64,000 nt of DNA from a virus. This document shows, in pieces, positions 26,374 to 58,568 of this stretch. The notes beneath the pieces were generated by a model. That model worked only from the letters and a program-made list of their open reading frames with translations. It ran no database searches and was not told the origin of the DNA. Location of the stretch: IMG/VR virus record IMGVR_UViG_3300036985_003583, positions 6,868 to 70,867 of that record. One strand, written 5' to 3'. Numbering within the stretch: the stretch's first letter is position 1; every line of letters begins with the position of its first letter. Both the position numbers and the translations under genes were made by a program.

Positions 26374-27075
26374 CTAAACTTCTACTGAGTCAAAATTACC
26401 TTGATGGTCTACTTCCGCGTTACCTACTTTTCTCTTGGTCAGAACGTGAGCGAGCGTCCTCGCCCCGATCACCTGTAAACCTACATTCCAGCCTTCTCCA
26501 ACGGTGCTAAGGTAAAGAGGATAGCCAATCAAGGTAAAAGCTAGAAACAGCTCCTCAAGGTTATAACGCTGCGTCAGAGCGCCGACGCCAATAGCGTCAA
26601 GAAAGTCCGGTAATTCCTCTGACGTAATCCGACCCGGCAGTTTTGCCGTTGTGTAGATCGGGAGTCTGACAATCAAGAAACGGAACAAGTCAGCGTAGGT
26701 GTGCCAGCTCATATCGGGATATTTCGCGTTAGCTTCTACTACCATCTGTTTCATCTTAACAGGCTTGCTACGGCGTGAGAGGATTCTGTCTTTAAATATC
26801 GCCTCAAGATGCGCGTCCCAGAAGAACGGGCAAACCAGAATAGACATAATCAAAGGTAGTAGCTCGGTTTCCGGCATAGCCGTGGTTACTTTAAATATCT
26901 GTTCACCTACGGGGAGCCGAAAAAAGATATCTGATAATTCTTTCATTATCTCCCGGCTAGCGGGAGTTTCTTTGTACATTGAAATGTAACGCTCTAGGCT
27001 CATGCCAAAGTCTTGCTGTAATCTTTCAACGATAGCTCCGGAGAGGTGCCGTGTTGGTTTTATATAAACGGTCAT
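26374..27075 (-). CDS. Hypothetical protein
   Basis: ATGA overlap with the upstream HNH gene; AAGGAG RBS. Confidence 0.7.
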   Translation of the reverse strand: MTVYIKPTRHLSGAIVERLQQDFGMSLERYISMYKETPASREIMKELSDIFFRLPVGEQIFKVTTAMPETELLPLIMSILVCPFFWDAHLEAIFKDRILSRRSKPVKMKQMVVEANAKYPDMSWHTYADLFRFLIVRLPIYTTAKLPGRITSEELPDFLDAIGVGALTQRYNLEELFLAFTLIGYPLYLSTVGEGWNVGLQVIGARTLAHVLTKRKVGNAEVDHQGNFDSVEV

Positions 27076-27899
27076 TCCATTATCTCCTTAATTATTTCTT
27101 CCTTCTGCAGCAGCAGCCATAGTATCTCAGTGTCATTAGCGTATCTCCAAGTAAGTCCGCAACATGTAGCCGCCTCTCCTTTGCAGCAATAAGCGATACC
27201 CGTTTGTTGTGTTTTATAGTGAGTGGCTGCAGCTAGGGAGGATTTAAAGTATTCACCTTTTGAATTGGCTACGGGTTTAAACTCTCTAGGTACAGAGTTC
27301 GCCGCCGGAATTTTTAATTTTCTGGGGAGAATGGTGTTCTCTCTAGTGGAATCAAATTCCCATGTAAGTCCTCCACAGATACGTCTTTTACCTGTACAGC
27401 AGTCAGAAATATGTGCCTGATTTAACCCCAGACTCCTAGCTGCCTCAGCTGTGGATACAAAGCTCTCTCCTTTATTATTTATTACTGCTTTTCTCAATCC
27501 CTGTACGTATTCTACCTGTCTAGAGTCTTGTATTTTATTGAAAATATTCTGCTCGATAAGGTATTTTCTATGCAGAATGGCTGCTTCCATCCCTAAAGCA
27601 CTCGGGATTACGGATATATCGGGGATTCCCGTATTGGCCCTATTTTCTTTTTGAGTCACTTCTCTTAGGTTGCACTTCCTATTATCCCATCTGCACCTAT
27701 TGATATGATCTATCACTTTAGCGGGATCTGGGTATTTAAGTATTAAGTGGCTCATTCTTACGGGCTTTCTTTTATGTTGGATAAACCACGCATATCCGAA
27801 CGTCCCTTTCCACACTACCCCTTTTACTTTATCCCAGTCATCTGCATCTACACAGGCGAAGTTATCCTTCCCAAAATGTACCCACTTTATCTCAGTCAT
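27072..27899 (-). mobile_element. HNH homing endonuclease with two C-terminal NUMOD1-like DNA-binding repeats
   Basis: VDADDWDKV...MSHLIL...VIDHINRCRWDNRKCNLREVT..EN; repeats FVSTAEAARSLG..HISDCCTGK..CGGLTWEF and FKSSLAAA..IAYCCKG..CCGLTWRY. Confidence 0.9.
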
Positions 27900-29172
27900 T
27901 CATCACCTCTTGGATTATAGCCTCCTTATTTAAAAGGATTCTGCTCACACGCGTATCAATTCCCGGCCTTACCAGTGTTACAACGCGGCACTTGCGGGTC
28001 TGTGTCATACGTCGGATACGTCCAACAGCCTGTGTATTCTTATGCGGTTCGTAGGATAAATCCATAAAGACAAGATGATTTGACCTTGTCAGGGTAATTC
28101 CAACGGAAGCGGAGCCAATGGTCGCAACAAGTACATCAATTTCCCCAGCCTGGAATCTCTTTACAGTGTCATCCCGCTGAGCCATCGGGGTGTCACCACG
28201 GATATATGCACTATTTGGTATTGCGGCACAGACCTCAAAGCAGCTTAATACGTGGTCTGTGAAAACAACTATCGGAAGATCTTGTGCTGCAATAGCATTC
28301 TTAACATATTCGATACAGTCGGGAGCCTTGGCAATGGCTGCTTCCATCTTTAATGTTGCCATTGAAGTAGGCGTAGCCTCGCCAAGTTGGTACGCTTCCC
28401 AGCCTTTCTCGAGATTATCGTCAAGTTCCTGCAGCCGTTTCTTTTCCTTCGGCACTTGCGCCAGTTCTATTTCAGTGAAGATAACTTCTGGAAGATCCTC
28501 CAGATCAGCAAGCTTATGTTTGATGTAAGTTCCCTTCAGCCACAGCTTTAACGCCTCTGTATTCTTACTGCCTTCAAAGGTTGTTATTTCCCTTCCCGCA
28601 ACTCGTTTCTTTACCATGTTAGCGAAGGTAAGGTTGAACGCCCACTGACTCTTAAACTTGAGGTTAAATCCTCTGCTCCGTATCGGCCCATAGTCTATCA
28701 ACCGTAACGTGGAGTACAGTTCGGTAACTTTCCCTTTGAGGGGAGTTCCCGTCATTAATATAAGTCTACTCGGAACAAACTGTGATATGTGACTGTGTAG
28801 GGCTTTAGTCCTTCTCGCCGTCATCGTCAGAAACATGTGAGATTCATCTACAACTACCGTGCCAACGCCGTGAAACAATTCGGGGCATTTATAGATCATG
28901 TCTGAAGAGATGATAATAACTCTACAGGATAACTGCCCTTTGAAAGGGTAAATGACAGACTCGATACCAGCAAACTTTCTCAGCTCCTTCTGCCAATTCC
29001 GCGTCAGCAAGCTAGGACAGACAACGATAGCTCTCCCTGCATACTCTTTAATGAGGAGAATCGCACTCAGGGTTTTTCCGACTCCTGGCTCTGAGAAGCA
29101 AGCGCAGTAAGGGTTACTACGGAAGAACTCCAGTGCTTCTAGCTGATGAGGGAAAGGTATAAAGTCTGTCAT
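27892..29172 (-). CDS. SNF2-like (SF2) DNA helicase
   Basis: PFPHQ, Walker A EPGVGKT, VVDESH, MTGTP, VGITLT, QAVGRIRR; likely ATG at 29172. Confidence 0.9.
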   Translation of the reverse strand: MTDFIPFPHQLEALEFFRSNPYCACFSEPGVGKTLSAILLIKEYAGRAIVVCPSLLTRNWQKELRKFAGIESVIYPFKGQLSCRVIIISSDMIYKCPELFHGVGTVVVDESHMFLTMTARRTKALHSHISQFVPSRLILMTGTPLKGKVTELYSTLRLIDYGPIRSRGFNLKFKSQWAFNLTFANMVKKRVAGREITTFEGSKNTEALKLWLKGTYIKHKLADLEDLPEVIFTEIELAQVPKEKKRLQELDDNLEKGWEAYQLGEATPTSMATLKMEAAIAKAPDCIEYVKNAIAAQDLPIVVFTDHVLSCFEVCAAIPNSAYIRGDTPMAQRDDTVKRFQAGEIDVLVATIGSASVGITLTRSNHLVFMDLSYEPHKNTQAVGRIRRMTQTRKCRVVTLVRPGIDTRVSRILLNKEAIIQEVMND

Positions 29173-29179
29173 AACCACC

Positions 29180-29932
29180 TCAGCTAAAGAAAGGGTTTGG
29201 AAGCTTATTGGCGCCAAGGGTCAGAGACGTATCTGCAACCGCTACAACCAAAGCTTGGTTAACTTTTCCATTACGGCTGTAGATCCAGTGGCCGTTAGCA
29301 GCGTTAAGAGCGTCTTTGATCGAGGTAAGCATTGCAGGATTAGACTTCCAGTCAGGATTTGTCACGGCAATGGCGTCAACAATCTCTACCAACATGCTCT
29401 TGTTGGAACGATCAAACATCACATCAATATAGGTGACAGGCAGAGACTCGGTTGCTACGGTTTCTGTGTGCGCTACGTCGATAACATCTTTCGCTTTTGG
29501 TTTCGCCTTGGCTTTAGCTTTAGGTTTCTCTACGACTTCAGGGATTATCACAGGATCAGGCGTTACAACTGGCTCTGGAGTTACGAACTTGTTGTGTTCT
29601 TCCTGAGTTATGGGTCGGAATCCCTTTGCCATCTCTGGAGTTATTTCTGGACATTCGTCACCTAAAGTAGGTGCTGTATCTTCAGAAGCAAAGACTTCCG
29701 GGTTTTTTGCTAAAACATCTTCCAAGCTACCTGCGAAGAGATCAGCGGCGTTTTCTTTACATGAGGCAACGAATCCCCTTAGTTTATCCGGAGCTGGCTT
29801 AGGCTCAAGAGGCATAAAGAACATATAGTCTTCTTCGCACTCATCATCTCCCGCCTTGCAGCTGCAGGTTATTGAGCATTTAATTACTGAAAGAAAGCTG
29901 TCCATTGCAAAACTTGCAACTTTAATCTTCAC
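29180..29932 (-). CDS. Hypothetical protein
   Basis: 250-aa ORF, GGAG RBS, GTG start. Confidence 0.65.
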   Translation of the reverse strand: MKIKVASFAMDSFLSVIKCSITCSCKAGDDECEEDYMFFMPLEPKPAPDKLRGFVASCKENAADLFAGSLEDVLAKNPEVFASEDTAPTLGDECPEITPEMAKGFRPITQEEHNKFVTPEPVVTPDPVIIPEVVEKPKAKAKAKPKAKDVIDVAHTETVATESLPVTYIDVMFDRSNKSMLVEIVDAIAVTNPDWKSNPAMLTSIKDALNAANGHWIYSRNGKVNQALVVAVADTSLTLGANKLPNPFFS

Positions 29933-29941
29933 GGTATCTCC

Positions 29942-30445
29942 TTAATTGCGTAATTTTTCACTAATTTTATTTGCCAGTTCAGTAAACTTAGAATTCCGTA
30001 GCTTCATATTTACGTGAGTTTCCAAGAAACTTGCCAATTCTATTGCGGTACGGGCTTCTGCTAATAGCTGCCTATATTCTTTCTCTCTCTCACAGGCTTC
30101 TAGTAGTTGTTTTGTCTGACGATTATCTCTGTCAATAAAGTTTTCGACTTCCCAATCCATCATTACTATTGGAAAGCTTACTGTTATAGTTTTTTCTTCT
30201 TTGCCAGATATGCGCGACTTAATAACTCCTTTGTCATATAAATCATTAAATAATCCTTGTGCTGTATCCATCTCTACCATTGTCACATATTGAACATAAT
30301 CTTCTACATTTAGTGATAACAATACTTCTTCTGATATAATTCTCGTCGCGTGATAGACTTTAGTTTTCTTGCCGATGTTGCAAAACTTTTCTTCGTCTTC
30401 TGTCATGCGAGGAGTTGGTTTAAGCAATGTAACTTCATTACACAT
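29942..30445 (-). CDS. Hypothetical protein
   Basis: 167-aa ORF, AGGAG RBS. Confidence 0.65.
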   Translation of the reverse strand: MCNEVTLLKPTPRMTEDEEKFCNIGKKTKVYHATRIISEEVLLSLNVEDYVQYVTMVEMDTAQGLFNDLYDKGVIKSRISGKEEKTITVSFPIVMMDWEVENFIDRDNRQTKQLLEACEREKEYRQLLAEARTAIELASFLETHVNMKLRNSKFTELANKISEKLRN

Positions 30446-30466
30446 AACTATTCTCCTATTAATTTG

Positions 30467-30754
30467 TTAGTTCCCGTTCCCGTACCCGTCCCCGTCCCCG
30501 CACCCGTTCCCGTACCCGTCCCCGTCCCCGTCCCCGTACCCGTTCCCGTTCCCGTACCCGCACCCGTTCCCGCACCCGTTCCCGCACCCGTTCCCGTCCC
30601 CGTCCCCGTACCCGTCCCCGTACCCGTCCCCGTACCCGTTCCCGTTCCCGTACCCGTACCCGTTCCCGTTCCCGTCCCCGTTCCCGTCCCCGTACCCGTT
30701 CCTGTCCCCGAATATTAAAGAATCAAAATTTTCTCTTATATTTTGGTTTCCCAT
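30467..30754 (-). CDS. Gly-X dipeptide repeat protein (G[DNYC])n
   Basis: Same strand as the operon and overlaps the upstream gene; such GYGDG-repeat ORFs commonly follow this upstream family in phages. Confidence 0.55.
30471..30710 (-). repeat. Hexamer tandem repeat GGG-(AAC/TAC/GAC/TGC), about 39 units
   Basis: Directly visible. Confidence 0.95.
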
Positions 30755-31114: not shown

Positions 31115-32113
31115 TTAAAATAATAAGTCTAAACTATCTGTCGCTACCGCTGGCAAAGTTCTGTCTGTACTGTTCTTGTTAGTGTAGGTCTTCGCCAATT
31201 CTTTTGCTTCGGTAGCTGTGTGTCCTGCGTGACAATGGCTAAAGTATTCACATAATTTATTGTAGTTTACACAGCTTCCCCTGTTGCATTCTGTCTTCTC
31301 AATATCCATTATCTCTTTCATTCCATCAGAGACTGCTTTGAGGCGTAGTAGTTTGTCCATCTCAGCTTGGGGCTGGAGAAGCTCTTTTGGAATATCTACT
31401 TCTGTGCAGATAACACCCACTCTGGCTGCATACGCTGCCAGCGACTCATTCACCTTAACTGCAATTCTAGTCTTGGACACCGCTGAGTACACGGCTCCTG
31501 CAAAGTCTTCTTTGCGCAGTTTGAGCTTCGCCGCTATCTGCGGAACAAAAAAGCTATACAGATTAAGCTGTGGATCTTGAGCAAGTCTAGCAATAGTGTC
31601 AGCTAGTGGCATTCCCGAAGTTTTAAGATCCGCAATCCACCAACGTCCGTTCTTATCCATCAAGATAAAGTCAACGTAGCCGACGAAGTTAGTATCGCCG
31701 ACTTCAACTTCACAAGCTATGCAAATAAGCCCGCTACCCTCACGGAGAGTAAAGTAAGCCAGCACATAAGCATTGATTCTATGTATTTCCTCTGGTTCTA
31801 GGTCACATTCTTTCACTATCTTAGCCAGCTCCTGCACCGAGTAATCCCGTCTCTGGTGTCGAGAAGTCTCCAGCATATAGTGATACACTTTACCTACGAC
31901 TAACGCTTTGTAGTCTTCGGTAACGTCAGGATCCTTTGGCAAGTTAAGCACATACTTAAGGTAATACTTTCTCTGACATGCTTGCAATGTACCGCTAGCA
32001 GAGTAACTAAAGCGCCTTGGCCCCACATAGTCGCTAACTGGTCTGCCTAGGTTTATCGTAGAGCTTACTGACGCCATTACATGTTCAGCTGGTTTTATTT
32101 CTTCAAAGCCCAT
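31115..32113 (-). CDS. PD-(D/E)XK exonuclease (RecB/Cas4-like)
   Basis: SYS...CQRKYYLKY, GKVYH, E..GYVD...IADLKTS, QLNLY, C-terminal C..C..C..C. Confidence 0.85.
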   Translation of the reverse strand: MGFEEIKPAEHVMASVSSTINLGRPVSDYVGPRRFSYSASGTLQACQRKYYLKYVLNLPKDPDVTEDYKALVVGKVYHYMLETSRHQRRDYSVQELAKIVKECDLEPEEIHRINAYVLAYFTLREGSGLICIACEVEVGDTNFVGYVDFILMDKNGRWWIADLKTSGMPLADTIARLAQDPQLNLYSFFVPQIAAKLKLRKEDFAGAVYSAVSKTRIAVKVNESLAAYAARVGVICTEVDIPKELLQPQAEMDKLLRLKAVSDGMKEIMDIEKTECNRGSCVNYNKLCEYFSHCHAGHTATEAKELAKTYTNKNSTDRTLPAVATDSLDLLF

Positions 32114-32194
32114 ATTTTTTCTTCCTTACAAACCTTTAGCCATTAACAATTCAACAAGGTTAAATTTTATTGACTAAAGGTGTGTTGAACGTTG

Positions 32195-32605
32195 TTAAAT
32201 TAAGTCGTCTAAACTATCTGCTGGGACATCTGCGTCTGTCGGAGCTGGAACGTCGGGGGCTATGGAAACCCCTGCGCCGTCACGCTTCCCGCACTTGCTA
32301 CGATCAATCTCAACCTTAAAGTCCCCACAAGGCTTTCCTGCCATTGGGCCTTTAGTCAGCGTAACCTTTCCAAGGTAGGTAACTCGAATGAAGTCTTCCA
32401 ACTTTAAATTCTCATCCATACGCTTGTTTAGAATCGCTGCGGAATTGAGTACATGAGTCTCGCCATCCTCAGTAACGATGTCATAGAATGCACCATAATG
32501 GTTCTTATCTTTTCTTACGTACCAACCAGTAACAATAACGGTATTTGGTTCCATTGTTGCGTACTTGTGATAGTGCCTAGTTCCGCCAATTTCTTGAAAC
32601 GTCAT
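32195..32605 (-). CDS. Probable phage single-stranded DNA-binding protein
   Basis: OB-fold-like (IRVTYLGK...DFKVE) with an acidic C-terminal tail; lies between polymerase and nuclease; ATG at 32605. Confidence 0.6.
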   Translation of the reverse strand: MTFQEIGGTRHYHKYATMEPNTVIVTGWYVRKDKNHYGAFYDIVTEDGETHVLNSAAILNKRMDENLKLEDFIRVTYLGKVTLTKGPMAGKPCGDFKVEIDRSKCGKRDGAGVSIAPDVPAPTDADVPADSLDDLI

Positions 32606-32708
32606 AACATACCCTTCTGCCTGTAATAGGCACGAATAACGGGAAAATATCCTCTCACCGTGAGAGGTGTCACCGCCGAAGTTCGAACCTTCGGCAGAGA
32701 CAGAGGGA

Positions 32709-32737
32709 ACCTTATCCCTCTGTGGGGGGAGTGTCAA
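32709..32737 (-). promoter_or_regulatory. Sigma70-type promoter for the ssb/nuclease genes
   Basis: TTGACA-17 nt-TAAGGT, with the -10 box in the loop of a 9-bp inverted repeat. Confidence 0.65.
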
Positions 32738-32740
32738 GGA

Positions 32741-34879
32741 CTAAAGCAACAAATCTAACTCTTCCTCGAGGTACGGAGGACGCCACTCAGGCATCACATA
32801 CTTAGAGTAGTTGAGCCACTCTTTTAACCCACGTTTGTCTATGTGATACTCGGATATCTCAACCTCATTACCCTTCGGAGTCGTCAACTTCTCCGTGTCG
32901 CACTTGCCATCTCGGCTGATCTTTGTCGGCGGCAGGCCGTAGCCCCAGGCTTTGATGTCTCCTCGGATCCCGCTGTTGGGGAAGTAGAAGTCGAAAGCTT
33001 CAACCATCTTATCCTTGAGCATATCAGCGCAGTGTCCAAGCATGTCAAAGTCAGCCTGGATATACACACAATCGTGTAATGTCATAACTACGCTTAAACC
33101 TGCATCCTGACACAAAGCCACTGCCTTCCGCATAATGCTCGCCCCAGCCCCCTGAATAGGGAAATTAACTACAGACTTTACGTTCGGATTCTGACCGAAC
33201 ATTCGCCACCCGCAGGGGACGATGATCGGGTCTCCGTCTGACCTGTAGCTGCGTTGAAGACCTTGCTGCCACTGGGAGAAATTAGGGTAGGCTTTTTTGA
33301 ATAGGTCAGATAGTTTTTGAGCTTCCTCTTGAGTGACTATTAACCCGTATTTTTTACCGTCGTCAGTAAGCTTCTTAGCCAATCCTTTAGCTCCCATGAG
33401 ATAGCTCAATCCCAATACGAGGGACTTGCTTTCGTCGCGTTCCCTTGCGTATTTTTTCTTATATTCCTTATACTCTTTTGTTCCGGGAGCAGGTATCTTT
33501 TCCTTTATCTTTCCGCTGTCGTAGGCAAATCCGAGGTAAACATCTCCGGAAGCATAGGCGGCTTTCATCTTGTCATCTTTTGACACCAATGCAGAGATGA
33601 GGAATTCTTGGCTGCTATAGTCGCAAGCTATGATAACTTTTCCCTTCGGGGGTTGTACCAATATCCTGATCCACGCTGACTTCAGGAATATGTAGCTGGT
33701 GGCGCTTGGTTGGCTCCGGCTAGACTGGCTCCCGTATATGCCAAAATATGGCCGTATACGGCTATCCGAACCCAGAAAGTCGAACAGTTTTTTGCCTGTA
33801 GACTTCACCGGATCCTTGAAGCCTCGAATACTGGACTCCAGTTTTTTCCACCGCAGCAGTTGATCTAGAAGGGAGTCGCTAGGGTTGTCGTCGTTAGCTC
33901 CTTGCTCTTCCAGAGCGTCGGCAGAGAGGCTTATCGCCCCCCCGTCAGTCTTTGCCCATCGAGAAGTGTCTAGATTATCTCTGACCCATTCCTGGACAAC
34001 TTTTTCCCGCATGTGCCATCCGGTCTTGTCCTTATGAAACATCTCTATTCCCAAGGGCTTTAGCTTCTCATTTATATCTTTACGGCATACAACTTGAATA
34101 TCCCCAATGTTGTTAATGAATGTTTTTGTAGCTTCTACGTTTATCGGATAGCCCAGCGTAGTCATTACTGCAGACCTGGCCGCGTACTCGCCGCGTAAAT
34201 GAACCTCTTTAGCAAAGTCTTTGGGGGAGCATTGGGGGCGTAGCCATTTGAATATAGCTAACATCAAAGCCGGAAGGTGTGCTACATCTTCAGCGCAATA
34301 TGACATAATCCTATTGCGCTGGGAGATGATCTCTGCCCCATTGTTTGATATTATCAATTTCCTTACATCTTCTTTTTCAAAGGTATCTATATGTATTCCC
34401 AGCATTCGGTAAGTAGCTGCGGCGAGGTTATGTTCTATTTTCCCGGTCTCACCGGCTTCTTTATTTATCTTTAAGGCGTCCCCGTAATAATATAGGCCGT
34501 TGTCTTTCATGGTGTCACAGGTATTGGCTAGGAATCTAACTCCGCTTTTCATCAGATGTTTACCGTAGCTAAGTTCAGAATGATTAGTTATTAGCCAGTA
34601 TTCTAGGTACAGATCTACCCATTTAAACTCTATAGGGTTCAGCCCTAATGAGAGGAAGCTTCTCGCTTCCGCTTCCGCAGCGAAGGAGATAAAGGTTGAG
34701 TCGTCTTTGTGTAACAAAAGAAACTTCTTTAGTTCCTCTTTACCCTCTGGAGAATTGTAGAGCCAGAAGTTTTTGTTAGTAATTACGTCCTCGTCTTTAC
34801 AGCGTAGGGAGCAACATACTAAATTTAGCATAGCTTCTTGGGTTGAGTTATATTCAAAATCGATCCATATATGCATCAA
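32741..34879 (-). CDS. polA: Family A DNA polymerase with 3'-5' exonuclease domain
   Basis: ExoI WIDFE, ExoIII YCAEDV; motif A DYSSQE, motif B RDESKSLVLGLSY (Leu at the 762-equivalent position), NFPIQGAGA, motif C LHD. Confidence 0.92.
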   Translation of the reverse strand: MMHIWIDFEYNSTQEAMLNLVCCSLRCKDEDVITNKNFWLYNSPEGKEELKKFLLLHKDDSTFISFAAEAEARSFLSLGLNPIEFKWVDLYLEYWLITNHSELSYGKHLMKSGVRFLANTCDTMKDNGLYYYGDALKINKEAGETGKIEHNLAAATYRMLGIHIDTFEKEDVRKLIISNNGAEIISQRNRIMSYCAEDVAHLPALMLAIFKWLRPQCSPKDFAKEVHLRGEYAARSAVMTTLGYPINVEATKTFINNIGDIQVVCRKDINEKLKPLGIEMFHKDKTGWHMREKVVQEWVRDNLDTSRWAKTDGGAISLSADALEEQGANDDNPSDSLLDQLLRWKKLESSIRGFKDPVKSTGKKLFDFLGSDSRIRPYFGIYGSQSSRSQPSATSYIFLKSAWIRILVQPPKGKVIIACDYSSQEFLISALVSKDDKMKAAYASGDVYLGFAYDSGKIKEKIPAPGTKEYKEYKKKYARERDESKSLVLGLSYLMGAKGLAKKLTDDGKKYGLIVTQEEAQKLSDLFKKAYPNFSQWQQGLQRSYRSDGDPIIVPCGWRMFGQNPNVKSVVNFPIQGAGASIMRKAVALCQDAGLSVVMTLHDCVYIQADFDMLGHCADMLKDKMVEAFDFYFPNSGIRGDIKAWGYGLPPTKISRDGKCDTEKLTTPKGNEVEISEYHIDKRGLKEWLNYSKYVMPEWRPPYLEEELDLLL

Positions 34880-53377: not shown

Positions 53378-53701
53378 GTGAGGGATTTAATGGAAGAATT
53401 CAAACTGTTATTAAATCACCTTATGATAAAGGTAGACAGGCTAGATAGCAAAATTCAAGAGAATAACATCATTTTAGCCCGTAATACAGTTTCCCTCGAA
53501 GAGCATAAAAGAAGAACTGATATTGCAGAATCAGTACAGAAAGAGTGTCGCGCCACATGTGATATAAACCGAGAAGAAGTGGCGGAGTCTTTGGCAGAAA
53601 TTAAGTTTTACTTTAAAGCATCGGCAGCGGTAACTGGATTTGTTGTTGGGGTTATCGGAATTCTAGCAGGAATAGCACAGATTAAATCGGTCTGGTTCTA
53701 A
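53378..53701 (+). CDS. Coiled-coil plus C-terminal TM protein (holin/hemolysin-like)
   Basis: SLEEHKRRT motif followed by a single TM segment; extended -10 TGTTATAAT at 53347. Confidence 0.55.
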   Translation: MRDLMEEFKLLLNHLMIKVDRLDSKIQENNIILARNTVSLEEHKRRTDIAESVQKECRATCDINREEVAESLAEIKFYFKASAAVTGFVVGVIGILAGIAQIKSVWF

Positions 53702-54981
53702 GGCATTCTGAGGAAGAAGCGAGTTGTTCCACAGTTACCGTTTTTCAAGTATCTTTCTACTAATCCAACCTGTTGATTATGCAAAACTAGAGCAATATCT
53801 TCGGATTTTCTACTGACGAAGCAGAAAACATGATCGATATTTGTATCGCTAGGGCCACTTACGCAAATATCGCCCAATTGCAGCTTAGATAAATCAGTAA
53901 ATTTAACATAGTGTAGCGTCTGCATTGCATAAGTCACAAAGTGGTCAACGTTTATCGAAGGCGTTGATCCCAACACTGGAAACGGGAGTCCTGCTAACTT
54001 TAATGCAGAAGTTTGATGTGCTACACATGAGTTTTTTATTGCATTTGGAGAATATTTTGGAGTAAACCACCGTTCAACTTCTTTTCTAACTTCACCATAG
54101 TTGTTCTGGAAGTAATTAACAAAGACTTCTGCTGACGACTTCAACGAAGTCTTGGGAATCTCCCCGTATTTAGCCGGAAGCTCACAGAAAATTACTCTGG
54201 CTCTTGGAGCGCCAGCAGCGAGCGAAGATCTGTAGAACATTTCAATGCTACCATTTGTATCTAGATAACAAACGCATTTGCCGTTAGCGTCAAACCCGCG
54301 AGCGTCGGAGAAATCTGCAACGTTTATCCGCCATTCTATAATCTCCCGCTCGTTTTTAGGTATCGTAGTAGGAGGTAAATGGCTAGTATCATTGCTACTT
54401 GTAGATAAGTCTGCACTTATTTCTCCAATGTTGATTAGTGTTTTCAACATTGTAACACAGCCACACCGATTACTAACAGCGGTGGCGTCCCAAACGTGAT
54501 CGGCGACGTAACGTCCCGGCTTCTGTACCGAAGTTCCTGCCCATACATATGGTGAAGGAACGTTATGTGGCTCATAGCCGAAACCGTTAAATTTCTCAAA
54601 TAAATACAGTATCTTAGCGATCGACCAGTCTTTATTTTCTGATAATTTATCGTAGTTTAGTGCGTCAATACAGGATTCTTCCCATGTAAAAGGAGGATTA
54701 CCCGCTACTGGCCTTCCAGCAGGAACTTGTACTGTTCTGGCTTTTAACGGATCTCCGTTGTGCATGTGACGATCCCAATTACAGTCGGATTCCATCTGAT
54801 GAATGCAGGCAATGACGTACCAAGGAACATTAGTTGCAACGGAAGCAGCCATATAACGCTTTTTATTCTTGATAAAAGCTAAGCAGTTCTTCTTTGCCGT
54901 AGCTTCTTTACAGGGAATAATATAAGCATTCTTCCACAGAGCTAAAATATCCGCTTTCTTTTCCTCGGTATACTGGCTCAT
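53698..54981 (-). CDS. Endolysin: lysozyme-like domain plus putative Cys/His amidase domain
   Basis: VPWYVIACIHQMES...HNGDPL..RTVQVPAGRP...EKFNGFGY...SPYVWAGT...GRYVAD; C-terminal NSCVAH...GDICV...DHVF. Confidence 0.8.
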   Translation of the reverse strand: MSQYTEEKKADILALWKNAYIIPCKEATAKKNCLAFIKNKKRYMAASVATNVPWYVIACIHQMESDCNWDRHMHNGDPLKARTVQVPAGRPVAGNPPFTWEESCIDALNYDKLSENKDWSIAKILYLFEKFNGFGYEPHNVPSPYVWAGTSVQKPGRYVADHVWDATAVSNRCGCVTMLKTLINIGEISADLSTSSNDTSHLPPTTIPKNEREIIEWRINVADFSDARGFDANGKCVCYLDTNGSIEMFYRSSLAAGAPRARVIFCELPAKYGEIPKTSLKSSAEVFVNYFQNNYGEVRKEVERWFTPKYSPNAIKNSCVAHQTSALKLAGLPFPVLGSTPSINVDHFVTYAMQTLHYVKFTDLSKLQLGDICVSGPSDTNIDHVFCFVSRKSEDIALVLHNQQVGLVERYLKNGNCGTTRFFLRMP

Positions 54982-55196
54982 ATCTTCCCCCTTAATTCAT
55001 TGAATCTGGCATCAAGTCTAGCTCTTGCCTCGGCATCTTTGACGCCAAGATCGGAGCTATCGGCGACTCCGGAAGAAATATTATGGATAGTGTCGAGCCA
55101 TTGCTTGTTTAATTCTTCTCTTTTAGCTTCATTCTTTATATATTTATTGAGGAACCACAGTCCTATCTTAGCTAATAACGGAAGAAATATGGGCAT
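54978..55196 (-). CDS. Small membrane-anchored protein (possible spanin component)
   Basis: Hydrophobic N-terminus, helical body, coupled to the endolysin. Confidence 0.5.
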   Translation of the reverse strand: MPIFLPLLAKIGLWFLNKYIKNEAKREELNKQWLDTIHNISSGVADSSDLGVKDAEARARLDARFNELRGKI

Positions 55197-55198
55197 GG

Positions 55199-55852
55199 CT
55201 ACTCCAATGGTGCGAGCGGTCTCACGGTGTGGTTAATAGGGGTGGAGAAAGCCCGCAGAAATCCCCAACCATTCTTTAATCGCATGTTAACAGCACACGG
55301 GTTTATTTTATAGAGGAACGACCACTCCGCTAAACATTTTGTCTCCCCCTGATAAGTTATAAATTTTGTATTACTTTTATTTCTACTATTCTCTATAATT
55401 GAAGACCATTTACAATTTTCTTTTGAATACCCTTTATTATTATCTATTCTATCTAACCTCTTCAGATTACCTTTACTATCTAAGGTAATTTCTCCCATGT
55501 CTGTATAGAAATTATCAAACTTAAGCCAACTGTCGCATACCGATATTCCCCGTTTACCATACCATTTATAGTGACTATTATTAGAATCGGTACATCTTTT
55601 TATCATATTATACCACACGTAGTATACCTTAGTTCCCCCTTTTCCATGTGTTCTATGCCAGTCTGGACCATGACACCCGCAAGACTTAGACCTATTCCCA
55701 ACTAATTGTGTATAGGCTACTTTTTTAATTGTGCCGCATTCACAAATACAGGTATAAAAGTATGACCTTTTAATTTTCTCTCGTGGGAGGTTACAGGTAG
55801 TCCAGTACCCGAATACTGTCATAGGAGGTAATACTTTAGCAGGAGCAGGCAT
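55199..55852 (-). mobile_element. HNH homing endonuclease
   Basis: CICECG...SKSCGC...THG...WYNMIKRC...YGKRGISVCDSW..FDNFYTDMG...LDRIDNNKGYSKENCKW; ATG 55852 after AAGGA; AT-richer than its flanks. Confidence 0.9.
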
Positions 55853-55930
55853 CGCTTTTCCTTTCAAACGAAATTTTAGAAACTTCGCTCGACCTTGCGC
55901 AAGGAAAAGCGACTATTCAATCTATCACAC

Positions 55931-56572
55931 TTATTCGAGAGGGGCCAAACTTCTCGTGGTATGTCGATGATACGCCCCCGACTTTAGCCCGCGAAACAAG
56001 TATCCAGATTCTACTGTTCCCATGTAGTAAGTGCAAATGGCTCCGTCACAAACGATTGGGCTTGCGTCCTTCAACGGCTCAGCTATCACAGGCTCGTCAA
56101 AAACTATTCGGGTAATATCGCGGGAAGCGACCTGACAGACTGAAGCGCCGCCAACGCGCAGAGACTTTCGGTTGCACGTAACCCACGCTGGCAAGGTAAC
56201 TTCTTCACCATAGAAATCTATGATTCCAAGTGACATTGGTTGCTCTTTAGATGCAATAAATATCTTCATTATGCAGCGATCCTTCGTATCTTCTACGAAG
56301 TGAATTGGGTCATAGGTAAAAGAAAAGGGAGCTACCGGATTTATAAATTCTGGGTGTCCAGCGCAGGTTGCGAAGACAATTCTTTCCGCCGTCTTGGGCA
56401 GAGTAGGCTTTATTATCTGAGTTTTCTTTCTAGGAATCGCAGCCATGCCAACATAATTAAGACCGTCTACGTTAAAAGCCAAAGTAGCCTCATTGGAAAA
56501 CGTCTTAACTTCCTGCAATTGGGAAGCATTGCAACCTACTAAAACCAGTAAAATTAGTATAAGTGACTTCAT
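55931..56572 (-). CDS. Lipoprotein in the lysis/tail cluster
   Basis: MKSLILILLVLVG-C lipobox; Cys-rich, beta-type body. Confidence 0.7.
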   Translation of the reverse strand: MKSLILILLVLVGCNASQLQEVKTFSNEATLAFNVDGLNYVGMAAIPRKKTQIIKPTLPKTAERIVFATCAGHPEFINPVAPFSFTYDPIHFVEDTKDRCIMKIFIASKEQPMSLGIIDFYGEEVTLPAWVTCNRKSLRVGGASVCQVASRDITRIVFDEPVIAEPLKDASPIVCDGAICTYYMGTVESGYLFRGLKSGAYHRHTTRSLAPLE

Positions 56573-56606
56573 ATGACGTCAAATCTCCGATTCATTTTAC
56601 AACGCT

Positions 56607-57077
56607 TTACAACGCTGCAATTTCTGCATCTCTTGTCACGATCCTTTGAAATCTCCAAGCTGCAAACATGCGTGCTGCTGCCATTCTTGGAGTAATCCAA
56701 AATGCCACTTCCTCCAAAGTTGGGAACATCATTGGCACATACATCGCAGGATTTGCCTCAATATCACTCCAACTTTGCTGCGTCGCAAGTGCTGCACTTT
56801 GGTTCTTTGTCCCATAAACTGCAAACTGCTGAGCTTCAATATCTGCATCGCACTGTGCTCTTGCTGCAGATATCTGTGCATCTTTTGCTGCTTGGGCCAT
56901 AGCAGCTTGATCTTCTATGATAACAATACTTCCTTCGACTTCAATAGCTTTTAAATAGTTTACGTTATATCCATCTTGCATTTCAACTGAATAAAATATC
57001 TCAGAATCAAATCCAGCATAAGGTAGTTCAAATACTTGAACAACTTTTAAATCAGACTTATTTACCAATGCCCACAT
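56607..57077 (-). CDS. Tail-fibre assembly/chaperone-like protein
   Basis: Directly downstream of the tail-fibre genes; size and composition fit. Confidence 0.5.
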   Translation of the reverse strand: MWALVNKSDLKVVQVFELPYAGFDSEIFYSVEMQDGYNVNYLKAIEVEGSIVIIEDQAAMAQAAKDAQISAARAQCDADIEAQQFAVYGTKNQSAALATQQSWSDIEANPAMYVPMMFPTLEEVAFWITPRMAAARMFAAWRFQRIVTRDAEIAAL

Positions 57078-57086
57078 AACAACTCC

Positions 57087-58568
57087 TTAAATAAAATATG
57101 ATCCAGAAATAACATGAGCCACATTAGCAGTATCATTTGTGCAATACCACGAGGCCGTTGCTGCTGCCGCTGCTGCTGTTATTCTCCCAATATTAGTTGC
57201 AGAAGAAATAACGCCGTTAATATTGGTTGTTTTAGCTGCTATTGGTAGAGTAAAAGTTACAGTACTCGCAGTTGGGCCAGCCGCTGTTACGTCAATTGTT
57301 GCGTTAAATTCAAAGTGACAGATGCCATTTGCAACTCTATATTTTGCGCCGCTTGCTGTGCCTACCGCTGCAACGTTTGTGCCGGCTGTAATTGCCGGAA
57401 GCCATGTTGTAGCAGGGTCATTCTGACTTGGAAATTGAGCCAAAGCATTTGTTACTGTGCCATGTAGTTTATTTGTAGACGAATCCTGCCAAGTTCCTTC
57501 GCCAATCCCCTCCGGCTCAAGGCCTAGGACGCAGCCGAGTGGAATTAGTTTAGAAGCATTTGTCCATTTTGTTGGTGTCGTTGCAATACAAGTCCACTCT
57601 GCCCCGTCTACGTTAGCAGATGCTCCGGTGCTTGAAACATTTGTAAAATCATCGTCAGTTATCCAGTCTACTGTACGGTATCTTTTGCCTATTGTTAAAG
57701 TGCCAGATGTTTGTTGAGTCATCGACCCGCCAACATCCTCCCAGTCCAACTTAGCACCTGCGCTGTAGCGTTGTACTTTTGTAAATGCAGCATAATTTAA
57801 TAGACCTGCTCTATAGATATGTCCTACAATATTCACATTAGCTGCCGGGTATCCTGTAGTAAAAACAGGAGTACCTGATATATCTGTAGCAGCTAATCCC
57901 GGAAATGTGCCGAGAACACCGTTTAAATATGGGTATATTACGCCATTTTGCCTAATTACTATTATGGAGGCATATTGTTCTACAGGTACTGTAATGCTCG
58001 TAGATGCAGTGCTTCCACCCAATTGCACTCTTAATACGGAGGTGTTAGTTACTTGCAAAGCAACGCCGTTGGCACCTGCGAAATTTTGAAGTAAGTAGCG
58101 AGTATCCACGCTTTGTTGCGTTATCATTCCTTCCCAAATCATAGTAAAATCGCCTAGTCCTAATGCAAGATTAGCACTTGCTAACGTGCTGACGTAGCTC
58201 GACCCATTAAGATAATAACTCGGCTTATCCGCTGCGGCGTCCTGAATGTTCTGTAAGTCTGCAAATGTGCCTGACCTATCTTGATGCTTAACTACCCTGT
58301 CTGCTGTTAAAGTCTCATTCTGTACAGTAGCGCCATAGGTATCTGCTGTTAGATTCTTGACTTTTATTTTGTCGCCAAATGTTTGTAGACCAGCTAGTGT
58401 CTGAGTCTCTGTTATCTGTGCTACAGTTACACTTGCTGCTGTTACAGCTGGCAGGATAAATGTTTTATCCCCACCAAATGTTGCGTTCTCTACAGTAGCA
58501 GCGTATGTATCTGCTGATGTATTTTTTACTTTCAATTTGCTTTTCACAAAAAACGGTGATGTTGCCAT
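57087..58568 (-). CDS. Tail fibre / receptor-binding protein with a LamG-like domain
   Basis: LGLGDFTM.W...IIVIRQNGVIYPYLNG; WQDSSTNKLHGTV; duplicated N-terminal KxKVKNxxADTY motif; C-terminal AKYRVANG..FTLPIA. Confidence 0.7.
   Translation of the reverse strand: MATSPFFVKSKLKVKNTSADTYAATVENATFGGDKTFILPAVTAASVTVAQITETQTLAGLQTFGDKIKVKNLTADTYGATVQNETLTADRVVKHQDRSGTFADLQNIQDAAADKPSYYLNGSSYVSTLASANLALGLGDFTMIWEGMITQQSVDTRYLLQNFAGANGVALQVTNTSVLRVQLGGSTASTSITVPVEQYASIIVIRQNGVIYPYLNGVLGTFPGLAATDISGTPVFTTGYPAANVNIVGHIYRAGLLNYAAFTKVQRYSAGAKLDWEDVGGSMTQQTSGTLTIGKRYRTVDWITDDDFTNVSSTGASANVDGAEWTCIATTPTKWTNASKLIPLGCVLGLEPEGIGEGTWQDSSTNKLHGTVTNALAQFPSQNDPATTWLPAITAGTNVAAVGTASGAKYRVANGICHFEFNATIDVTAAGPTASTVTFTLPIAAKTTNINGVISSATNIGRITAAAAAATASWYCTNDTANVAHVISGSYFI

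Follow-up and report, generated by a model that had tools for sequence, protein, structure and literature searches.

A putative HNH-type endonuclease gene flanked by two diverged copies of the end of a phage lipoprotein gene

In this work we analyzed a window of 64,000 nucleotides of viral DNA (IMG/VR record IMGVR_UViG_3300036985_003583), in which a lipoprotein gene and the putative HNH-type endonuclease gene located just downstream of it end in two copies of one short sequence, which are alike as peptides and differ in most of their codons. Our analysis suggests that a free-standing HNH cassette probably entered the lipoprotein gene at its 3' end, some 10 codons ahead of the stop. A second endonuclease gene of the same genome shows the same layout. 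The window covers bases 6868-70867 of a viral contig that is 70,867 bp long and bears direct terminal repeats; the contig comes from an uncultured phage whose DNA polymerase has 30% identity to its best match among cultured phages. All genes of the two cases (those for the lipoprotein, the HNH protein, a 72 amino acid protein, a helicase, the HNH_3 protein and a 233 amino acid protein) are on the minus strand. Hereafter, the L copy is the present end of the lipoprotein gene and the R copy is the end of the HNH open reading frame (ORF).

Two copies of the lipoprotein gene end

The lipoprotein gene (55931..56572, minus strand) was identified as an ORF encoding 213 amino acids, with a lipobox-like start, MKSLILILLVLVGC, recognized by eye. 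Its last 10 codons plus TAA constitute the L copy (55931..55963, minus strand; CAT ACC ACG AGA AGT TTG GCC CCT CTC GAA TAA, encoding HTTRSLAPLE), which we read as a replacement end brought by the endonuclease cassette and to which the gene would owe its completeness. The R copy (55199..55231, minus strand; CAC ACC GTG AGA CCG CTC GCA CCA TTG GAG TAG, encoding HTVRPLAPLE) comprises the last 10 codons plus TAG of the HNH ORF, which in our reading were originally the end of the lipoprotein gene and have been displaced. The original prediction, made from the letters of the window, had drawn attention to this match, and its description proved exact: 8 of the 10 residues are identical, and six of these eight, together with the stop, use different codons.

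At the DNA level the two copies match in 19 of 33 bases (58%), compared with 80% residue identity, and 9 of the 11 codon meanings are kept. In a simulation of 14 random changes in 33 bases, a mean of 3.3 of the 11 meanings was kept, and at least 9 were kept once in 200,000 trials (P about 5e-6). Since 9 of 11 meanings persist despite 14 base changes in 33, the copies diverged under protein-level selection. We also compared the last 10 residues of the 243 ORFs of the whole 70,867-bp genome (29,403 pairs), and the lipoprotein/HNH pair was the best (8/10), followed by a single pair at 6/10, which reflects an unrelated acidic-tail motif, and by nine pairs at 5/10. The similarity between the two copies is real, and chance is excluded as its source.

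The arrangement was further analyzed in Logan contigs of three runs, aligned to 53500-57500 at 80% likeness: X1, possibly the source sample; X2, from a different study; and X3, which has no cover at either junction. One X1 contig spans 53671-56576, including both copies, with zero differences to the window, and one X2 contig (record 10) spans 55479-55973, covering the HNH body, the spacer and the lipoprotein end, with 8 differences in 495 bases. In view of these two contigs, the arrangement is not an assembly artefact.

The HNH ORF and its foreign tail

The HNH-type endonuclease ORF (55199..55852, minus strand) encodes a 217 amino acid protein from its likely ATG at 55852; the frame is open from a TTG at 55867 (222 amino acids) and has no stop before the R copy. 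Its product matches PHROG 374 (E 5e-49) and PHROG 3377 (E 3e-46), both labelled HNH endonuclease. A large protein collection holds 1,291 homologues, and our statements on identity and tails rest on 119 listed ones, which are at most 47% identical to the protein. An AlphaFold (AF2) model obtained with 50 homologues as input reached a predicted local distance difference test score (pLDDT) of 90.8; a Foldseek comparison of this model with PDB structures returned nothing at E up to 0.001, and a PDB sequence search with the protein was likewise empty at E up to 1. We therefore describe the ORF as encoding a putative HNH-type nuclease, an assignment for which the family label is the main basis and which falls short of proof.

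Proteins of this HNH family end in a helix-turn-helix-like ...GW..E.ALTTP segment followed by 0-20 variable residues. The peptide HTVRPLAPLE finds at most 5 of 10 matches anywhere in each of the 119 listed homologues, and a tail of this kind is present in none of them. The original prediction had named HNH homologues at other loci ending in LAPLE as evidence that would speak against it, and there are none in this set. In addition, the PHROG alignments end at residue 213 of the 222 amino acid ORF, and the model shows the final ten residues free of secondary structure (pLDDT 66 in the last block). Judged by sequence, the tail is foreign to the HNH family.

Endonuclease-free relatives of the junction

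The lipoprotein has no Pfam or PHROG match, and belongs to a family of 9 proteins that are 54-65% identical to that of the window and share the C-terminus YHRHTTRGLAPxE[N/D/K]; one member, P0004, ends in HTVRGLAPLEN. Given the consensus HRHTTRGLAPxE and the end of P0004, the tail of the HNH ORF corresponds to a genuine lipoprotein end.

The lipoprotein gene was found in three distinct viral contigs (L022, L023 and L002/L021), and in two of these three (L022 and L023) it is coupled directly to a homologue of the 72 amino acid gene, with no HNH gene between them. In L022, the lipoprotein stop overlaps by 1 nt the ATG of a 76 amino acid ORF whose product is 60% identical to the 72 amino acid protein of the window; in L023, a 77 amino acid homologue (41% identical) begins 1 nt past the lipoprotein stop. 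In both contigs the Glu codon near the lipoprotein end forms part of a GGAG located 5-7 bases ahead of the downstream ATG. In the window, the 72 amino acid gene (54978..55196, minus strand), whose product has a hydrophobic N-terminus, is translationally coupled to whatever ends at 55199: its ATG lies 2 nt past the HNH stop, and the R copy holds a GGAG (TTG GAG TAG CC ATG) at the same distance from the ATG as in L022. The L copy (CTC GAA TAA) has no GGAG before its stop. The HNH tail would hold the place and the ribosome signal of the native lipoprotein end, and the present lipoprotein end would be freed from that constraint.

The direct coupling in L022 and L023 bears out the earlier proposal that the HNH gene is an insertion at the junction between the lipoprotein and 72 amino acid genes. 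The accompanying claim, that the HNH ORF keeps the displaced original end as its own C-terminus, agrees with the native position of the tail, with the retained GGAG and with the absence of the tail from the listed homologues, to whose family it is an addition. Searches for closer relatives gave no match in metagenome contigs, where the lipoprotein served as query, or in genome contigs, and the exact 33-base pattern from 55193-55225 had 0 matches in viral contigs. In a collection of phages, the DNA gave short HNH-motif matches only, and the proteins gave one lipoprotein match at 22% identity.

Two further observations concern this junction. In L002 (4729-5111) it carries two small hydrophobic ORFs (67 and 60 amino acids) and no endonuclease gene, and the lipoprotein/72 amino acid junction may be a repeated insertion site. 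Moreover, the 72 amino acid protein aligns from residue 5 of the 76 amino acid homologue of L022 (5642-5872), its N-terminus being four residues shorter at the junction with the endonuclease tail.

Carrier and non-carrier alleles in metagenomes

In run X2, two contigs lack exactly 732 bases, in register; the two copies lie this same distance apart. One of them joins 55225 to 55958 at a depth of 10, with 30 bases on the shorter side and a 3-base ambiguity that corresponds to the three bases common to the copies at that point; it is R-type at all discriminating positions up to 55225, except for the His codon. An HNH-less allele ending in the codons now found at 55199 was foreseen by the original prediction, and this contig supplies it. 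The HNH gene is absent and present at one and the same site, a pattern expected of homing genes: it is missing from L022 and L023, and the X2 skips stand beside an HNH-carrying contig of the same run.

The second X2 contig joins 55211 to 55944 at a depth of 4.6, and its tail is a hybrid, with the first six codons L-type and the last four R-type. It may represent an HNH-less allele produced by recombination or, alternatively, a variant carrier's HNH tail. The HNH-carrying contig has a depth of 4.6 and the lipoprotein body one of 13.8, about the sum of 10 and 4.6; these depths (4.6 + 10 versus 13.8 and 14.6) slightly favour the variant carrier. In a diverged X1 contig, the stretch between 54738 and 56534 measures 1,098 bases instead of the 1,795 of the window, which fits an HNH-less relative. 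Finally, the HNH region of X2 (55479-55973) is 98.4% identical to the window, compared with 91.6-96.6% for its flanks (records 8, 9 and 11), which fits either a recent spread of the HNH region or the presence in X2 of two strains of different relatedness.

A second case after a helicase gene

We scanned the genome with PF01844, PF13392, PF01541, PF14279 and the case-1 protein, and identified one further endonuclease-type gene only, which is the second case (case 2) that the original prediction had placed in this genome. The ORF (27072..27899, minus strand) encodes a 275 amino acid HNH_3/I-HmuI-NUMOD-like endonuclease (PF13392 and PF22083, both over the cut-offs). The upstream gene encodes a SNF2-family helicase (27892..29217, minus strand; PF00176 and PF00271) that ends in DTRVSRILLNKEAIIQEVMND before the stop, and its last 21 codons plus stop form the L copy of this case (27892-27957, minus strand). 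The R copy (27072-27134, minus strand) corresponds to the last 20 codons plus stop of the HNH_3 ORF, whose tail, DTEILWLLLQKEEIIKEIME followed by the stop, resembles the helicase end. The HNH_3 ATG overlaps the helicase stop by 8 nt, and the HNH_3 stop overlaps in turn the ATG of the 233 amino acid gene (26374..27075, minus strand; no Pfam match), so that the two are coupled through an ATGA overlap.

The copies of case 2 differ in 27 of 57 bases and keep 10 of 19 residues (53% and 53%; P 4e-5). Local alignment of the last 25 residues of the 179 ORFs of at least 60 amino acids (15,931 pairs) gave scores of 50 for case 2 and 41 for case 1, followed by 39 and 38; the two best pairs are the two upstream-gene/HNH pairs of the genome. 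The closest helicase homologue, P0131 (72% identical), ends in ...LLNKEEIIKEVME. Its last ten residues match the HNH_3 tail in 9 of 10 positions, with the stop at the same position, and the present helicase end of the window in 6 of 10, with one extra residue. Case 2 shows the same layout as case 1. Helicase relatives are absent from the L022, L023 and L002 records, and none appeared in a single-protein scan; a profile scan returned 80 loci, none of them above 32% identity, a distance too great for them to bear on case 2. A search with the HNH_3 protein found one partial-domain locus only.

It should be noted that the first two codons of each endonuclease gene encode the same residues as those of its downstream gene (ATG CCT and ATG CCC, MP, in case 1; ATG ACT and ATG ACC, MT, in case 2). 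By chance such an identity would be expected with a probability of about 0.09 for each, and 0.008 for both. The bases before the HNH ATG (55850-55866) also resemble those before the 72 amino acid ATG (55194-55210), with GGA..AGC.ATGCC in common. The duplicated unit may be a whole gene junction, including the start of the downstream gene.

A predicted hairpin in the spacer

A 78-nt spacer separates the two ORFs of case 1, and an RNA hairpin (55851..55913, minus strand) was predicted in it. Its 3' arm contains the HNH Shine-Dalgarno sequence, AAGGAAAAG, and the AU of the start codon. The predicted structure is an interrupted 26-bp hairpin of -29.4 kcal/mol (z -2.86), and one of 200 shuffled sequences folds as well. 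If formed, the hairpin would sequester the HNH Shine-Dalgarno sequence and start codon, in the manner of the I-TevI, segB and mobE type. Case 2 has no comparable hairpin (z -0.79). A scan for sigma-70 promoters and terminators gave counts like those of shuffled sequences and nothing in the spacer or hairpin; phage-specific promoters lie outside such a scan.

An Rfam search of 54800-56700 at E up to 1 gave no family match, and the HNH ORF is separate, with its own Shine-Dalgarno sequence and ATG after the lipoprotein stop. On both grounds, it most probably does not lie in an intron or an intein.

Origin of the two copies

The most coherent reading of these data is the insertion of a free-standing cassette. 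The mobile unit would consist of the replacement end with its stop, the hairpin-bearing spacer and an endonuclease ORF that lacks its own stop. The replacement end, which would encode the same peptide in diverged spelling and in frame with the lipoprotein body, would leave the protein whole, and the spacer hairpin would hide the ribosome site of the endonuclease gene. The endonuclease frame would then continue into the displaced native codons and end at their stop, which precedes the ATG of the 72 amino acid gene by 2 nt. The native Shine-Dalgarno sequence within these codons would be kept, and ribosomes finishing the endonuclease would reach the 72 amino acid gene as lipoprotein ribosomes do in the endonuclease-free relatives. 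Most likely, the upstream copy would have come with the endonuclease gene from a related phage, as a flank co-converted during double-strand-break repair. In this scheme, the almost exclusively synonymous differences between the copies are most simply explained if the replacement end had served a functional lipoprotein of a different lineage during its evolution. The L copy had originally been described as recoded; the respelling stands, and the end is better read as an allele from a diverged relative than as a purposeful recoding. The enzyme itself would cut the uninterrupted lipoprotein end, insertion and respelling would together make the carrier immune, and the cassette would still be homing.

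Several observations weigh against the insertion of a cassette that carried the L copy. By position alone, the structure is symmetrical, and either copy could have arrived with the endonuclease gene. The nuclease assignment is itself fragile: the case-1 ORF has no Pfam match, an R stands where the first His is usually found, within a DRID-like column that is invariant, and a structure-only search, which placed the HNH restriction enzyme PacI first (residues 68-185; Z 5.6, root mean square deviation 4.4, 97 residues), gives a hint only. Both window copies end directly after the Glu, and all eight database relatives have one or two residues more, so that the donor was not very distant or the copies have swapped sequence. 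In case 2, the ten residues that precede the last ten of P0131 match the HNH_3 tail in 5 of 10 positions and the present helicase end in 8 of 10. The hybrid tail of the 55211/55944 contig is not foreseen by the simple model. The HNH-less evidence from X2 consists of single short contigs placed at 80% likeness, whose letters are not readable, and the 55225/55958 joint could also have arisen through loss of the HNH gene by recombination in the 3-5 bases shared at the 5' edge of the repeats. Lastly, none of the eight loci with relatives of the case-1 HNH gene has a duplicated tail next to it (five with an upstream ORF, three without).

The same symmetry, with a duplicated junction flanking the HNH body, invites the reverse direction, in which the L copy would be native and the endonuclease gene would have arrived with the R copy and the downstream start, between the lipoprotein stop and the 72 amino acid ATG. 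The shared first two codons of each HNH gene and its downstream gene, the GGA..AGC.ATGCC likeness before the ATGs and the proximal 10 residues of the helicase, nearer to P0131 than those of the HNH_3 tail, all lean this way. We nevertheless regard it as unlikely: the X2 HNH-less contig is R-type up to 55225, the L copy lost the GGAG that the HNH-less relatives keep, and the distal 10 residues and stop position of HNH_3 match P0131 better than the helicase does (9/10 versus 6/10). The R-type contig and the retained GGAG favour the R copy as the native one, as does the distal half of case 2; the shortness of the single contigs, the hybrid contig and the proximal half of case 2, which leans the opposite way, weigh against certainty. 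Similarly improbable, in our view, is a duplication in place, in which the insertion would have doubled about 33 bases (about 60 in case 2) that diverged later, perhaps under selection against repeat-mediated loss or self-cleavage. Direct repeats beside an insert are a common result of illegitimate insertion, and both copies share the unusual stop after the Glu, which is seen in 0 of 8 relatives. However, the near-purely synonymous divergence (P 5e-6) would need long purifying selection on both peptides, and there is no evident reason for selection on the HNH tail, which is unstructured and absent from the 119 listed homologues. In addition, the copies differ by 42% in 33 bases, compared with the 98.4% identity between X2 and the window in the HNH region.

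The remaining alternatives seem to us far less probable. The shared tail could be a functional C-terminal signal (for sorting, degradation or binding to a partner) of both proteins, and the peptide is indeed conserved in the lipoprotein family. We hold this to be very improbable, as the tail of each HNH protein copies that of the protein encoded just upstream and the tails of the two cases are mutually unrelated (LAPLE versus KEEIIKEIME), no common fate is obvious for a lipoprotein and a cytoplasmic nuclease, and the tail occurs in 0 of the 119 listed homologues. Joining the lipoprotein body to the R copy would also give a normal lipoprotein end, as if the HNH ORF were inside a self-splicing intron or an intein and the R copy were the true last exon. 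This we consider hardly credible given the lack of an Rfam match and the fact that the non-coding bases number just 78. Moreover, the TAA closes the lipoprotein frame after a complete, family-type end, which makes splicing unneeded, and the insert of case 2 is taken up entirely by the ORF.

Comparison with known systems

The insertion of an endonuclease gene with a replacement end has a close parallel in the "mORF" gene hybrids of fungal mitochondria, described for atp6, atp9, cox2 and nad3 of Glomus (PMC3630166) and first for atp6 of Allomyces macrogynus (cited in PMC3630166). According to that account, the gene continues in phase into an inserted C-terminal copy, after which come the endonuclease ORF and then the displaced native C-terminus; the copies have 64-81% DNA identity and near-identical protein, the endonuclease ORF is in phase too in atp6 and nad3, and the inserted copy is interpreted as brought from another lineage (PMC3630166). 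The features that define this type are found in both cases of our genome: the endonuclease ORF lies between C-terminal copies, the upstream one continues the frame of the host gene, and the copies are diverged in DNA and conserved in protein. As in the fungal hybrids, the endonuclease gene is located near the 3' end of a gene, the presumed replacement end is in phase and the probable native end lies downstream of the endonuclease. Unlike the hybrids of that account, the host here is a phage, the endonucleases are HNH-type instead of LAGLIDADG or GIY-YIG, and the duplication comprises merely 10-20 codons. The endonuclease ORF is also separate, with its own start (hairpin-controlled or overlapping the upstream stop), and is read into the probable displaced native end, from which it would inherit the stop as well as the site where translation of the next gene re-initiates.

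Free-standing endonucleases of T4-like phages cut at a distance, and their immunity is ascribed to sequence differences. In two systems, Aeh1 mobE in nrdA and the T4 mobA/gene 60 cassette, an endonuclease insertion splits the host protein into two polypeptides. The genes described here are like these two in that an endonuclease gene lies within a coding region whose function is kept, and unlike them in that the host protein remains in one piece, by means of the replacement end. The seg and mob genes of T4-like phages are described as located between conserved genes, present or absent among relatives and with co-converted flanks (PMC2988022). Hairpins that sequester the ribosome-binding site are reported there for T4 I-TevI, I-TevII, I-TevIII and segB and for Aeh1 mobE; starts overlap the upstream stop in mobE (UAAUGA) and, by 11-24 bp, in segF, segC, mobA and mobC; and the endonuclease ORFs embed expression signals for downstream genes (PMC2988022). 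Hairpin control, predicted here for case 1, overlap with the upstream stop and embedded downstream signals are thus features in common. The seg and mob genes as described in PMC2988022 differ in the two remaining traits, a duplicated and respelled neighbour end and an ORF that ends in the displaced codons of the neighbour.

In the literature covered, which is incomplete and leaves most subscription journals outside, we came across no phage endonuclease gene described as surrounded by a duplicated host-gene end. The original prediction overstated the novelty of 3'-end replacement without an intron, as the same architecture is established for fungal mitochondrial endonuclease ORFs (PMC3630166). 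As far as that source describes it, the layout has long been known in fungal mitochondria, and its occurrence in a phage, with the features given above, is what appears to be new relative to the literature covered.

Generality and significance

The suggestion that the layout reflects a systematic strategy holds for the two HNH genes found here (2 of 2) and fails at the loci with related HNH genes (0 of 8, three of them without an upstream ORF). We also compared 1,391 adjacent same-strand ORF pairs from 108 other loci, which were not chosen for endonucleases; tandem paralogues came out on top, and there was no endonuclease-tail case among them. Generality of the layout beyond this genome is not shown. 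That phage endonuclease genes commonly invade coding ends as "end-replacement cassettes" is a tentative and rather doubtful generalization; in such cassettes, a diverged copy would keep the protein whole and destroy the target, and the native stop, ribosome site and re-initiation would be inherited without polar damage.

If phage endonuclease genes do commonly insert in this way, part of the highly variable C-terminal ends of phage HNH proteins would derive from invaded genes and record the target of the enzyme. The tail of such an endonuclease would then point to its target gene, and annotation could predict targets and avoid misreading chimeric ends in phylogenies. If the insertion of a cassette with a replacement end is correct, it would follow that a selfish endonuclease gene can enter a coding end in a tightly coupled operon with its neighbours unharmed, and with no intron or intein. 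The fungal mitochondrial layout would be extended to phages by two cases in one genome, with carrier and non-carrier alleles in one metagenome, and the two natural alleles offer a ready pair of substrates for cleavage and immunity.

Other observations in the genome and its relatives

The 72 amino acid gene is followed by an ORF encoding a 427 amino acid protein (53698-54981), whose N-terminal 200 residues are conserved and found in 18 viral contigs. This protein has no Pfam, PHROG or PDB sequence match (PDB at E up to 1), and it follows a lipoprotein and a small membrane-type protein, a placement that suggests a possible role in lysis. Between the homologues of the 72 and 427 amino acid genes, L022 (5869-6426) and L002 (5445-6002) carry an ORF of 185 amino acids that the window does not have.

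Three adjacent replication-type proteins (31115-34879, minus strand) have similar acidic-hydrophobic tails, namely the DNA polymerase (...EEELDLLL), a 180 amino acid protein (...DSLDDLI) and a 332 amino acid nuclease-like protein (...DSLDLLF). These tails recall T7 gp2.5 and gp4, which bind the polymerase via acidic C-terminal tails. The 6/10 pair of our tail comparison (32195-32737 and 31115-32113) was considered as a further endonuclease case and rejected, the acidic tail being common to replication proteins. Finally, an ORF of low complexity at 30350-30754 encodes GNG/YGD repeats and gives a PV repeat when the opposite strand is translated, and a comparable SGSRS/GV repeat ORF is found at the matching place of L023 (6749-6965), beside the homologue of a 122 amino acid gene.

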